A DNA stretch of 7,862 nt from a virus. Lineage: Duplodnaviria > Heunggongvirae > Uroviricota > Caudoviricetes. Within the stretch, counting starts at the first letter, position 1. Every line of letters starts with the position of its first letter. The stretch covers positions 1-7,862 of the IMG/VR virus record IMGVR_UViG_2548876959_000005; one strand, given 5' to 3'. Positions 545 through 5,916 of the stretch are shown here, piece by piece. The notes under the pieces are model-generated. The model had not been told where the DNA came from. It worked only from the letters and a program-made list of their open reading frames with translations, and ran no database searches. The position numbers and the translations under genes are program-made.

Positions 545-844
545 TCAAATAAGTGGTTTGCTGCCTAATTTCATTTTCTGGCGACCAACACAAGTCACAC
601 CCATTTCACTGCGTGGCTTGCGGTAGTAAATACGGTTCTGTTTACGCTCGACTTCTTCTGCCTTCTTGCAGCGAAGGCTTCCGAGTGATGCTGCTTTATC
701 TGCTCTGACGCAACCAGAGAGCTTTAGCGCAATTATTCGCGCCAGTCGCTGCTCTTGCATTGCCTGTTCACGTTGAGCCTGTCTGCGTGCTCTGCGGCGA
801 TTTCTGGCGTTATCGTCAGCCAGATATGTAATGACTACTGTCAT
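545..844 (-). CDS. N: Antitermination protein N (lambda/phi21 N family)
   Basis: 99-aa ORF with an N-terminal arginine-rich motif (NARNRRRARRQAQREQ) and a C-terminal segment (RIYYRKPRSEMGVTCVGRQKMKLGSKPLI) that matches the conserved C-terminus of lambdoid N proteins as I recall them. GGAGG ribosome-binding site 5-6 nt upstream of the ATG; sits downstream of pL/nutL. Confidence 0.85.
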   Translation of the reverse strand: MTVVITYLADDNARNRRRARRQAQREQAMQEQRLARIIALKLSGCVRADKAASLGSLRCKKAEEVERKQNRIYYRKPRSEMGVTCVGRQKMKLGSKPLI

Positions 845-951
845 GTTGACCTCCGATGATTGACTTTGGCGGTGACGCGCCGGGTGCTTATCTTCCGGTT
901 GCCGTCGTGCAGCTGCACTTCACGTCACCCCAAAGCCAACTACTCTTTGGT

Positions 952-993
952 TCCCGCATTTCGGCGGGACAATCCCATCAATGTTAAAGAGCC
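952..993 (-). promoter_or_regulatory. nutL: nutL: boxA-like element plus boxB hairpin (N utilisation site)
   Basis: Read on the minus strand: GCTCTTTAACA (boxA-like, plus coordinates 982-992), a 12-nt spacer, then TCCCGCCGAAATGCGGGA (plus 952-969; 6-bp stem, 6-nt loop). The hairpin is identical to the nutR boxB at 2650-2667. Located between pL and the N start, as in lambda. Confidence 0.65.
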
Positions 994-1038
994 TGCCAAT
1001 CTGTTCCGTTTGGCTACCAGCGTCCTGCTGATGGCTAA

Positions 1039-1125
1039 AGAATACTGTAGGTATTTTATTGTGTAAATACCCAAGGTATTTATTTTTGATGAAATAATGA
1101 TAAACAAATGAATACAAAGGATATT
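1039..1125 (-). promoter_or_regulatory. pL promoter with three OL operator-like palindromes
   Basis: Three AATAC-N5-(G/A)TATT sites at 1041-1055, 1066-1080 and 1111-1125. On the minus strand, -35 TTTACA (1062-1067) and -10 TATTCT (1039-1044) with a 17-bp spacer, overlapping sites 1 and 2. Orientation is toward N. Confidence 0.55.
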
Positions 1126-1211
1126 TATTTTTTCGGTATCTGCTTGTTCAGTGCTTTTTATGCGGGATATGTGAAGTGGATCCCGATAGCTATTGCTGCC
1201 GGGATTATGGG

Positions 1212-1580
1212 TTAGTCAGCGAAGGTTAAGACGAGAATTACCTTAATGATGTCTGCTACAACAGACACGGCCATAGATAAACCAAAGACGATCCAAGCCA
1301 TAGAGATGTCTTCACTACCATCGTATAGAGTTCCGTAATCACTGGTGTAAGGCGTAAATGTCGCGCCTTGATACAACAGGTATAAGCTTGATCCATAGAG
1401 GATAAATGCAGATATCCCTTGTATTGCTATGACCACTAGAATCATGAAACGAGCTGATCTATGCGCCCAAGCCTGGCTTATTTTTTCTGATAGAGATTTC
1501 GCAATAAAAGCATGCGCTAAGCCGTAAATTGTTGAGATTGCCAACATCCCAAAAAAGCTTGCTATAGCGGTTCCAACCAT
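1212..1580 (-). CDS. Small integral membrane protein (about 3 predicted transmembrane segments) co-transcribed downstream of cI; candidate exclusion or abortive-infection protein
   Basis: 122-aa ORF with three long hydrophobic stretches. GGGGGA ribosome-binding site 6 nt upstream of its ATG. Starts 19 nt after the cI stop, on the same strand, in the position lambda uses for rexA/rexB. Confidence 0.6.
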   Translation of the reverse strand: MVGTAIASFFGMLAISTIYGLAHAFIAKSLSEKISQAWAHRSARFMILVVIAIQGISAFILYGSSLYLLYQGATFTPYTSDYGTLYDGSEDISMAWIVFGLSMAVSVVADIIKVILVLTFAD

Positions 1581-1599
1581 AAGCGTCCCCCTTGCGTGA

Positions 1600-2316
1600 T
1601 CAAACCAGCCTTAGTTTTGTCTCAATTGCAACGCCTATAATCTTGCAGTTTCCATTGATTGGCACGAGAGGCCATGCAGGGTTAAGTCCCTTGAGGTATT
1701 TATTTCCGCCGTCGATTATCAGCTTCTTGAATGTTGCTTCGTTAGAGTCAGAAAGTTTTGCTATGACCAGGCTGCCGTTGATCGCCTCCCTTCCGGTATC
1801 GAAAAGAACGAATGTTCCCTCTGGAATGCTTAACCCAACCGGTGCCGTCATTGAATCACCTTCCACTTTAAGCCAGAACGCATTGCCTTGAATATGCGCG
1901 TCAGACTCAAGCCAAACATCTATGTCTTTAATGGTGTATGGTTCGCATGCTTCACACCACGAGCCAGCCTGGATACTGCTTAACACCGGATACCTCTTTC
2001 CTGCTCTGTATTCCCCTGCATACCTTACGTTGGCATCGCTCTTAAGGCTTTCTGCCTGTTCTGCAACCTTGGCAGCAATTGACTGGCTAAAATCAGCAAT
2101 TGAGACTTGCAACAAACGTGCAAAACCAGATGCGACCTCAACGTTTAGCGCGTTTCTGCCATTAAGATAATGCCCTACCGCTCCTTGGGTGATACCCAGT
2201 TCATCAGCGATTGAGTATTGGGTTATTCCCAATTCTTTCTTTTTTGACTCATACAAAGCCTTAAGCCGCTTAGCGTCTTCGAGCTGTTCTGTCGTCAGTG
2301 ATTTTTTATTTTCCAT
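1600..2316 (-). CDS. cI: cI-type phage repressor (N-terminal HTH, C-terminal LexA-like S24 autopeptidase domain)
   Basis: 238-aa ORF. N-terminus (LTTEQLEDAKRLKALYESKKKELGITQ) resembles lambda cI. Has the Ala-Gly cleavage site (SIQAGSW), the catalytic-serine motif EGDSMTAP and the lysine motif FKKLI. Divergent from cro across an operator region. Confidence 0.9.
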   Translation of the reverse strand: MENKKSLTTEQLEDAKRLKALYESKKKELGITQYSIADELGITQGAVGHYLNGRNALNVEVASGFARLLQVSIADFSQSIAAKVAEQAESLKSDANVRYAGEYRAGKRYPVLSSIQAGSWCEACEPYTIKDIDVWLESDAHIQGNAFWLKVEGDSMTAPVGLSIPEGTFVLFDTGREAINGSLVIAKLSDSNEATFKKLIIDGGNKYLKGLNPAWPLVPINGNCKIIGVAIETKLRLV

Positions 2317-2351
2317 AGCTTAATTCTAATAGCTAAGGTACTTAAACTAAA

Positions 2352-2393
2352 AATACCCTGAGTATTGATTGCTTTGAATACCTGTAGTATTCT
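2352..2393 (+). promoter_or_regulatory. OR operator sites with pR promoter
   Basis: Palindromes AATACCCTGAGTATT (2352-2366) and GAATACCTGTAGTATTC (2376-2392), same consensus as the OL sites. pR -35 TTGATT (2365-2370) and -10 TATTCT (2388-2393) with a 17-bp spacer. GGAGAG ribosome-binding site at 2412-2417 precedes cro. Confidence 0.6.
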
Positions 2394-2422
2394 TTGTTCA
2401 TGGTTAATAACGGAGAGTGCAT

Positions 2423-2617
2423 ATGATTCGAATGACACTTGCCGATTACGCCAAAATCCATGGACAGGCTAAAGCAGCCAGTGACTTTGGTGTAATCCAG
2501 TGCGCTATCAGCAAGGCCATTCTGGCAGGCCGTAACATTATGGTTACGGTAAAGCCTGATGGCAGTGTGATTGGAGAGGAAGTTCGTCCTTTCCCAAGCA
2601 ACAAGAAAAACAAATAG
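2423..2617 (+). CDS. cro: Cro repressor
   Basis: Small ORF divergent from cI. Sequence ([39 protein letters not shown]...PFPSNKK) is clearly related to lambda Cro. ATG at 2423 chosen for its 6-nt spacing from the ribosome-binding site; the GTG at 2417 in the ORF track is an alternative. Confidence 0.85.
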
Positions 2618-2623
2618 TAACAC

Positions 2624-2667
2624 CGCTCTTTAACAGTCATGGTCCTCATTCCCGCCGAAATGCGGGA
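2624..2667 (+). promoter_or_regulatory. nutR: nutR: boxA plus boxB hairpin
   Basis: CGCTCTTTAACA (2624-2635) closely matches the boxA consensus. After a 14-nt spacer comes TCCCGCCGAAATGCGGGA (2650-2667), a 6-bp stem with a 6-nt loop. Lies between cro and cII, as in lambda. Confidence 0.7.
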
Positions 2668-2674
2668 ATACAAC

Positions 2675-2700
2675 GCGCATAAGTTGATGCGCATAACTTC
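2675..2700 (+). terminator. Possible tR1-like hairpin or pause site downstream of nutR
   Basis: GCGCAT (2675-2680) pairs with ATGCGC (2687-2692) around a 6-nt loop, followed by a moderately T-rich stretch (ATAACTTCTTATTTGTT). Position matches lambda tR1; not a strong intrinsic terminator. Confidence 0.3.
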
Positions 2701-2725
2701 TTATTTGTTAAGGAAATACTTACAT

Positions 2726-3019
2726 ATGGTTCGTGCAAACAAACGCAACGAGGCTCTAAGAATCGAGAGTGCGTTGCTTAACAAAATCGCAATGCTTGGA
2801 ACTGAGAAGACAGCGGAAGCTGTGGGAGTTGATAAGTCGCAGATCAGCAGGTGGAAGAGGGACTGGATTCCAAAGTTCTCAATGCTGCTTGCTGTTCTTG
2901 AATGGGGTGTCGTCGACGACGACATGGCTCGATTGGCACGACAAGTTGCTTCGATTCTCACCAATAAAAAACGCCCGGCGGCAACCGAGCGTTCTGAACA
3001 AATCCAGATGGAATTTTAA
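2726..3019 (+). CDS. cII: Transcriptional activator cII
   Basis: 97-aa ORF (MVRANKRNEALRIESALLNK...ERSEQIQMEF) that I recall as nearly identical to lambda cII. AAGGA ribosome-binding site upstream. The track ORF beginning at 2639 is a spurious 5' extension that runs through nutR. Confidence 0.9.
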   Translation: MVRANKRNEALRIESALLNKIAMLGTEKTAEAVGVDKSQISRWKRDWIPKFSMLLAVLEWGVVDDDMARLARQVASILTNKKRPAATERSEQIQMEF

Positions 3020-3316: not shown

Positions 3317-4264
3317 ATGAGCAATACAGCAAAAATCTACGATTTCAGCGCCGCACACGAGCGCAGGAGCAACAGGATGGAGAACCAGAAAACTGGTTAC
3401 ATTCCGTTGTACCGGAGCATTCTGAAACAGTCATGGGCGAAAGATGTTTATCTTCGCACCCTGTGGGAAAACCTTCTCCTGAATGCCGCCAGAAAGCCAT
3501 ACAAAGCGAATTTCAAAGGTCATGAATGGCATCTGCAACCCGGTCAACTGGTTGTGACAGCAGCTGATTTAGGTCTTCAGTTATGCGACAGACATGGCAA
3601 GCCAGCAAGCCGTGATCAGGTTGAGCGGATGCTTCAGGTTTTTGTGAAAGAGGGGATGATCTCCATTGATGGAGAGAAGCAAAAAGGTCGTGTGATAACC
3701 ATCACAAATTACCATGAATATGCTCAAAAAATGGACAATTTACCCGCACATGAAGCCGCACAAACAACCGCACATGATGCCGCACATGGCGAAGCCAGTA
3801 ATGGCGCGGCTTTCAGCGCACATGCCGCACATGAAAGCGCACATGAAGCCGCACAAACAACCGCACATCATGAACAAGAAGGTATTAACAAGAATATAAA
3901 TAATACCCCCCTACCCCCCAATGGGGGAGGCGATGGGCAGGTTAAACCTGAACGTCGCAAGGCAGAACGAATCGACTACGAATCCTTCCTGAACGCCTAC
4001 AACACCGAAGTCGGTGACAGACTGCCACACGCTGTTGCGGTCAACGAGAAACGCAAACGCCGCCTGAAGAAAATCATCCCGCAACTGAAAACGCCAAACG
4101 TGGACGGTTTCAGAGCGTATGTCAGGGCGTTTGTGCATCAGGCCAAGCCGTTTTACTTCGGAGACAACGACACGGGCTGGACAGCTGATTTTGATTACCT
4201 GCTGAGGGAAGATTCGTTAACTGGAGTACGGGAAGGGAAGTTTGCAGACAGGGGGATTGCATGA
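3317..4264 (+). CDS. O: Replication initiator protein, O-like (origin-binding N-terminal domain, repeat linker, C-terminal domain)
   Basis: 315-aa ORF starting MSNTAKI, like lambda O. Internal repeat-encoded linker ([10 protein letters not shown]...) contains the iterons. C-terminal motif [10 protein letters not shown]. Its stop overlaps the helicase start (ATGA at 4261-4264). Confidence 0.8.
3744..3905 (+). repeat. Putative replication origin inside the O gene: about 9 iteron copies followed by an AT-rich segment
   Basis: Tandem units of roughly 12 bp (CCGCACATGAAG / CCGCACAAACAA / CCGCACATGATG / CCGCACATGGCG) at 3744-3791, then five more at 3817-3872. Includes a 31-bp direct repeat (3745-3775 and 3839-3869). 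Followed by AT-rich AACAAGAAGGTATTAACAAGAATATAAATAATA (3873-3905) and then a C-run/G-run element. Confidence 0.65.
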
Positions 4265-5709: not shown

Positions 5710-5916
5710 GTGGTTGAGTTGATTTTTTCTGCATTGAGGATTCTCGGTGCCATGTGGATGGTGGCGACGTTCATTGTGGTTGCCAGCAGTTTTGTCCGGT
5801 TGGTAGGCGAAGGTAAAGACCTGGCGGGTGTGATTTTCGGTAGCATTCTCCTGTGGGTGATTATCGGTGTTGCGCCTGTCGCTGTAGCAAAAATGGCGTG
5901 GCGTTTTGTGAGTTGA
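5710..5916 (+). CDS. Small hydrophobic membrane protein (68 aa, about 2 transmembrane segments)
   Basis: ORF from a GTG start with a GGGAGAG ribosome-binding site 7 nt upstream; two long hydrophobic stretches. Lies just after the tR2-like terminator in the lambda ren position. Could also start at an internal ATG. Confidence 0.45.
   Translation: MVELIFSALRILGAMWMVATFIVVASSFVRLVGEGKDLAGVIFGSILLWVIIGVAPVAVAKMAWRFVS

Follow-up and report, generated by a model that had tools for sequence, protein, structure and literature searches.

Our analysis of a 7,862-nucleotide stretch of lambdoid phage DNA (hereafter the window) identifies the open reading frame that follows the cI repressor gene as hkaS, the second and last gene of the cI operon in immunity modules of the HK620 type, where operon logic leads us to infer that it is cotranscribed with cI. 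Sequence comparisons point to a strict and ancient linkage of hkaS to one immunity specificity across several virion types, a linkage described here for the first time, and its product, HkaS, is predicted to be a three-helix inner-membrane protein with its N-terminus outside the cytoplasm and its C-terminus inside. From the position of the gene, and by analogy, we tentatively propose that HkaS is made in lysogens and excludes superinfecting phages, a role that we hold to be possible rather than probable.

The window is a typical lambdoid early region by its ORF list and its Pfam and PHROG matches (Table 1). None of the GenBank phages is collinear with the whole of it: the best, HF4s, reaches 79% coverage, and vB_EcoP-611R6 is 100% identical over positions 1000-2450 with only 67% coverage overall. 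The phage from which the window comes thus looks, at the sequence level, like a further mosaic of known lambdoid modules.

The hkaS gene and its transcription unit

The preliminary description of this DNA could not assign the protein and considered it possibly the first of a new family. It is in fact already catalogued, both as the hkaS gene of coliphage HK620 (GenBank AF335538, protein AAK28867), annotated "unknown" and 96.7% identical with 120 of the 122 amino acids aligned by tblastn, and as PHROG 6534, a family of unknown function whose profile matches HkaS over residues 1-122 of 122 (E 5.9e-79). Escherichia phage vB_EcoP-611R6 carries the same allele as the window (tblastn, 100%), and this allele differs from the HK620 gene, which has the same flanks (cI upstream, OL downstream), by few substitutions. 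All database names for the protein are "hypothetical protein", and a literature search found no study of it under any name or accession.

Table 1. Coordinates of hkaS and neighbouring features in the window.
Feature	Position	Strand	Remarks
ORF, 156 aa	66..536	-	Directly downstream of N
N	545..844	-	
pL	1067 to 1039	-	TTTACA-17-TATTCT; overlaps the OL palindromes
OL region	1041..1125		Palindromes AATACnnnnnGTATT at 1041-1055, 1066-1080 and 1111-1125
RNA hairpin	1180..1205	-	9 nt past the hkaS stop; -14 kcal/mol, z -3.4; no U tract
hkaS CDS	1212..1580	-	122 aa, predicted three-pass inner-membrane protein; PHROG 6534
hkaS ATG	1578-1580	-	
cI-hkaS spacer	1581..1599	-	19 nt
Shine-Dalgarno sequence	1586..1593	-	AAGGGGGA, 5 nt 5' of the hkaS ATG
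cI TGA stop	1600-1602	-	
cI repressor	1600..2316	-	238 aa, HTH_3 and Peptidase_S24; upstream gene in the same transcription unit as hkaS
OR region	2328..2391		Palindromes at 2328-2342, 2352-2366 and 2377-2391; must contain pRM, by analogy with the HK620 annotation
cro	2423..2617	+	
cII	2726..3019	+	
O-like replication gene, DnaB-type helicase, ninB, dam, ninE, ninX		+	

The account that had been given of the locus otherwise stands. A 122-aa frame, for which no strand had been named and which lies on the minus strand, begins 19 nt past the cI stop on the same strand, has a strong ribosome-binding site of its own and ends shortly before OL, with 86 nt between its stop codon and the closest operator-like palindrome (1111-1125) and with OL2 and OL1 about 130-170 nt away. 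Diverged hkaS lineages use AAGGA as Shine-Dalgarno sequence at a spacing similar to that in the window. The gene also occupies, as had been said, the slot that holds rexA and rexB in lambda, with no RexA-sized partner, and the HK620 record annotates the same layout, in the order cI, hkaS, terminator tIMM, OL3-OL1 and pL. In the ORF list of the window there is no RexA-sized frame between cI and OL and, besides hkaS, no minus-strand frame of at least 40 aa in this interval; the 19-nt gap between cI and hkaS leaves no room for a gene of the size of rexA.

A scan of the cI-hkaS spacer found no promoter-like site, nor was an internal pLIT-like promoter detected. At the other end of the gene, the hairpin just past the hkaS stop is the probable 3' end or stabilizer of the cI-hkaS transcript. 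A hairpin follows the stop codon by 9-22 nt in every lineage (z -2.1 to -4.7), none of them with a U tract, and these hairpins belong to three unrelated sequence types (window 1180..1205; Hafnia-type locus L099, 1832-1859; Salmonella-type locus L003, 5381-5421; locus L007, 5383-5412). What is functionally conserved here is a structure, serving as transcript end or stabilizer, without conservation of its sequence.

The operator consensus is matched 12 times in the window, against 2.7 matches expected by chance. All diverged lineages keep the third palindrome on the OL side (1111..1125, AATACAAAGGATATT, with 1 mismatch), 45 bp away from OL2. In the HK620 record (L001, 3088-3131), OL3 corresponds to about 1087-1103 of the window, a sequence that the lineages do not conserve, and the region with the 1111..1125 palindrome is labelled as the terminator tIMM; this OL3/tIMM annotation may need revision. 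Two further matches to the operator consensus, each with 2 mismatches, fall within the hkaS coding sequence (1370..1384 and 1411..1425), and they may be meaningless, since about 2.7 chance matches are expected in the window at that stringency. On the plus strand there is a 35-aa hydrophobic ORF (1108..1215, MNTKDIYFFGICLFSAFYAGYVKWIPIAIAAGIMG), which starts inside the distal operator-like site, is convergent with hkaS and overlaps its stop by 4 nt. We considered it as a type I toxin-like gene and rejected it: it has no Shine-Dalgarno sequence and its frame is not maintained in the Salmonella-type, L007 and Hafnia-type lineages, so it is probably not a gene.

Several other features of the window and its relatives were recorded in passing. 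The 156-aa ORF downstream of N has a full-length match to PHROG 1636 (function unknown, E 3e-112) and no Pfam domain. Between the DnaB-type helicase gene and the ninB region lies a 68-aa ORF with two hydrophobic segments and no Pfam match (5710..5916, plus strand); related phages have a hypothetical protein annotated in the corresponding place. The O-like gene contains a 12-bp tandem repeat, CCGCACATGAAG/A, in two arrays of about 3.7 copies each (3744..3788 and 3825..3868), which give rise to repeated motifs in the O-like protein; by analogy with lambda ori, these arrays are probably origin iterons. Rfam had no match anywhere in the window. In HK620 itself, cIII (L001, 1245..1385) is shorter than in its relatives owing to an internal stop codon, according to the annotation of the record.

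Linkage to one repressor and selection on HkaS

In every locus examined, hkaS follows a cI gene of the same lineage at a distance of 17-20 nt, with OL and N downstream. The gene comes after cI in 79/79 IMG/VR contigs that extend far enough upstream, and its frame is intact in 80/80; hkaS and this cI are each present in 146 of 5426 complete E. coli genomes (147 places), and all 16 GenBank phages with a cI at least 99% identical carry hkaS. Every block of homology to the window includes at least positions 950..2730 (nutL/pL/OL-hkaS-cI-OR-cro), and among 80 loci no recombination breakpoint falls between 950 and 2730; N (530-950) and the beginning of cII (about 2730) are where the breakpoints cluster. 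Phages of at least five genera that differ in their virions carry this 1.8-kb cI-hkaS-cro module, namely Lederbergvirus (HK620, 611R6), Lambdavirus (HK630), Shamshuipovirus (mEpX2), Yautsimvirus (HK140) and the Stx-type Traversvirus (phi296), and so do Stx2c-converting phages. The block moves between genera as a unit.

The family itself is extremely narrow, a point that is also new in this analysis. A word-indexed search for HkaS returned 12 clusters among 5.8 billion proteins, and an HMMER profile run against 1.84 billion representatives at 50% identity had only 2 matches, both members of the HkaS family and one of them a 44-aa fragment; this deep profile search yielded no remote homologue from which a function could be borrowed. 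A GTDB scan with one genome per species contained no HkaS. The carriers are prophages of Escherichia, Salmonella, Enterobacter and Hafnia, and the proteins fall into five lineages with about 98%, 82%, 60%, 56% and 52% identity to the window protein.

We also considered whether more distant cI relatives have a small membrane protein in the same slot, and in the four types checked this is not so. The slot is empty in Serratia OS31 (cI 71%) and Cronobacter ENT39118 (cI 65%), and in Erwinia phage 49 (cI 65%) it holds an unrelated 200-aa soluble protein. In phage 434 (cI 52%; L092 2409..2813, OL657227) it encodes an unrelated 134-aa protein with a hydrophobic, signal-peptide-like N-terminus, another uncharacterized passenger of a cI operon; its ORF overlaps the cI stop and is annotated as 'repressor protection protein', a phrase for which we found no paper. 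Empty or unrelated slots in other cI types fit the published view that the cI-N interval is a mosaic hotspot, home to defence genes such as rexAB and bstA (PMC8585504).

Comparison between lineages shows saturation at the synonymous sites of both hkaS and cI, and dN is 0.34-0.42 for hkaS as against about 0.08 for cI. The same difference is seen in the protein identities to the window, which are 95.8% for cI and 82% for HkaS in the Hafnia-type locus (L099), 86% and 60% in the Salmonella-type locus (L003), and 88% and 52% in L007. In the closest pair, the window and HK620, omega is 0.40 for hkaS and 0.05 for cI, and the Salmonella pair L003/L005 has no non-synonymous change in hkaS at a dS of 0.13. 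The length of 122 aa and the position of the gene are kept across lineages with saturated dS, and 44 columns of the protein are invariant across lineages down to 52% identity. These data indicate that HkaS is a real protein under purifying selection, yet one whose amino acids change 4-5 times faster than those of cI, which has not been described before.

Predicted structure and comparison with known families

The hydrophobic segments of HkaS, earlier estimated at about three, lie at approximately residues 3-27, 45-70 and 93-120 on the Kyte-Doolittle scale. An AlphaFold2 model based on a six-sequence alignment (mean pLDDT 89.7, pTM 0.74) has three long helices and one short amphipathic helix (residues 2-29, 31-37, 41-73 and 89-121), and its 74-88 loop forms a small beta-hairpin. 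Whatever the lineage, residues 28-44 make up a loop with a net charge of +3 to +5, and the charges of the 71-92 loop sum to -1 to -4. By the positive-inside rule, the 28-44 loop is placed with the C-terminus on the cytoplasmic side and the 71-92 loop with the N-terminus on the periplasmic side, so that the topology prediction called for in the preliminary description gives three helices in an N-out/C-in arrangement.

Conservation is distributed unevenly over this model. The predicted cytoplasmic loop is the best conserved, with 9 of 17 positions invariant and the motif LSxKI[ST]QxWxH[RK]xARF, and the periplasmic loop the least, with 4 of 22. Q54 in TM2 and the distal half of TM3 (D110-x-x-K113-x-ILVLTFAD) are nearly invariant; the protein ends in ...LTFAD, 2 residues past TM3. 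E. coli alleles differ most often by S93-M94 versus T-V, at the periplasmic end of TM3. The combination of a conserved cytoplasmic face and a variable periplasmic loop is a new observation of this analysis.

None of the searches that we ran connected HkaS to a characterized family. Pfam gave sub-threshold noise only, with no SieB, Imm or holin family and no RexB even at E<=1; matches to Cation_ATPase_C (E 0.0012, below the cut-off) and TssN were set aside as noise from the hydrophobic segments. There were no matches in NCBIfam, no family at E<=1 among the PADLOC-DB 2.0 defence models, no match at E<=10 when PDB chain sequences were compared with the HkaS family profile, and nothing at E<0.2 in a Foldseek search of the model against BFVD and PDB. 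The profile and structure comparisons that had been suggested against exclusion families of the RexB, SieB and Imm type thus ended without a match, and in hhalign comparisons with the HkaS alignment lambda SieB reached a probability of 1.8%.

The preliminary description had raised the idea of a solo RexB-like channel, which these results do not bear out: in addition to the Pfam result, the hhalign probability for lambda RexB is 0.7%, HkaS has three predicted transmembrane segments in 122 aa where RexB has four in 144 aa, and it has no RexA partner. The two proteins have no detectable homology and resemble each other in being small polytopic inner-membrane proteins, HkaS by prediction, encoded in the same slot between cI and OL and, by inference, in the same pRM/pRE transcription unit. 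The likeness to BstA of the Salmonella prophage BTP1 is likewise one of position, the bstA gene lying directly downstream of cI, presumably under the same promoter, and encoding a lysogen-expressed defence (PMC8585504). BstA, however, is a large abortive-infection protein of the cytoplasm that associates with DNA and is accompanied by an aba self-immunity element, whereas HkaS is a 122-aa membrane protein, and the two are not homologous.

Possible roles of HkaS

If the lambda paradigm applies, hkaS would be transcribed with cI, at a low level from pRM in lysogens and in a burst from pRE at establishment. HkaS would then insert into the inner membrane as a three-helix bundle, N-terminus periplasmic and C-terminus cytoplasmic, exposing to the cytoplasm a basic, conserved loop of 17 residues with a short amphipathic helix and to the periplasm an acidic, variable beta-hairpin loop of 22 residues. 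There it would protect the lysogen from superinfecting heteroimmune or unrelated phages, and the mode that we favour is constitutive interference with genome entry, as for the non-homologous P22 SieA, T4 Imm, HK97 gp15 and lactococcal Sie2009. SieA, gp15 and Sie2009 are made by prophages and Imm by the virulent phage T4, and all are small membrane proteins that block genome entry; the gene for Sie2009 adjoins the repressor gene. That small inner-membrane proteins can block DNA delivery is documented for P22 SieA (PMC10883804). HkaS, whose own placement in the inner membrane is predicted from hydropathy, loop charges and the AlphaFold2 helices, has no likeness in sequence or fold to SieA, Imm, gp15 or Sie2009, and hkaS differs in travelling with the immunity module and not with virion genes. 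Constitutive exclusion is ranked first because HkaS has no sensor partner and almost no cytoplasmic mass, and because its periplasm-exposed loop is its fastest-evolving part. Exclusion is made plausible by analogy, on the one hand with the repressor-adjacent rexAB, bstA and sie2009 and on the other with the inner-membrane proteins SieA, Imm and gp15, and the fast change of HkaS and its variable periplasmic loop fit, without proving, an arms race at the cell envelope.

Two other readings, each of which we think unlikely, draw on the same data. HkaS could be an abortive-infection effector of the Rex kind that has no separate sensor, staying silent in the lysogen membrane until a superinfecting phage either disturbs the membrane or produces a trigger protein, upon which it would oligomerize via Q54, D110 and K113, the membrane potential would be lost and the infection aborted. 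HkaS is encoded in the slot and operon that hold two abortive-infection systems, lambda rexAB and BTP1 bstA; its buried polar or charged residues (Q54, D110 and K113) do not vary, its conserved cytoplasmic loop could receive a signal, and a function independent of virion type would fit a module that moves between five genera. It is just as improbable in our estimate that HkaS has no part in defence and modulates the lysis-lysogeny switch, at establishment or induction, or brings about lysogenic conversion by altering an inner-membrane protein of the host, for instance a transporter, FtsH/HflKC or a stress-response component. Such a role would be in keeping with its strict and ancient inheritance together with a single cI/Cro/operator set, yet at a site that is a mosaic hotspot elsewhere among immunity types, with a conserved surface that is cytoplasmic and with expression from pRE, which would peak exactly at establishment; the modulation of the lambda switch by RexA/RexB provides a precedent (bioRxiv 10.1101/2021.04.19.439022). 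The linkage, however, also has a simple explanation in the absence of homology for recombination inside the immunity module, nothing points to a specific host target, and a rate of change 4-5 times that of cI is not what is usually seen in a protein that partners conserved components of the host or the switch. A further reading, which we regard as quite doubtful, would make HkaS the founding member of a new class of single-component, sensor-less inner-membrane proteins for defence or coupled to the switch, firmly tied to a single cI/Cro/operator specificity and inherited together with it beyond the saturation of synonymous sites; its conserved cytoplasmic face (LSxKIxQxWxHRxARF and D110/K113-ILVLTFAD) would couple the membrane events of superinfection to cell fate or to the prophage decision, and it would be neither a two-component system of the Rex type nor a classical entry blocker.

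The remaining explanations fare worse. In size and predicted topology (122 aa, three TM, N-out/C-in) HkaS resembles class I holins, and it might be a holin-like or antiholin protein that sets lysis timing for its own prophage or, in the manner of AbiZ, for invaders. This is very unlikely: the protein stops too soon after TM3 to have the charged C-terminal tail of a class I holin, it lacks a dual-start motif and any holin match in Pfam or PHROGs, and the gene sits in the immunity operon and not in a lysis cassette, related prophages carrying a separate holin of the lambda family. That hkaS is a chance or decaying ORF without function, as the lack of a known domain and the narrowness of the family might suggest, is scarcely credible and is effectively refuted by the conservation data, the frame being intact at all 80 loci, with its length and position kept despite saturated dS, the 44 invariant columns, a Shine-Dalgarno sequence in all lineages and a confident fold prediction.

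The interval between cI and N is a recognized site where temperate phages place defence genes for expression in the lysogen, rexAB and bstA among them, and the positional argument of the preliminary description is sound and agrees with the literature. An orphan three-pass membrane protein whose fold is predicted with confidence, HkaS has been kept in this slot through the deep divergence of one immunity group, a group found in about 2.7% of complete E. coli genomes, Stx2c-converting phages included, and also in Salmonella, Enterobacter and Hafnia. A catalogued hypothetical gene for which there is now a reasonable functional guess, hkaS is a good candidate for experiment, and the hypothesis is cheap to test because HK620, HK630, HK140 and mEpX2 are held in culture collections. 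Should HkaS indeed exclude phages, the defence repertoire of prophages would gain a minimal membrane mechanism that needs a single gene, with a bearing on the phage susceptibility of the strains that carry it.
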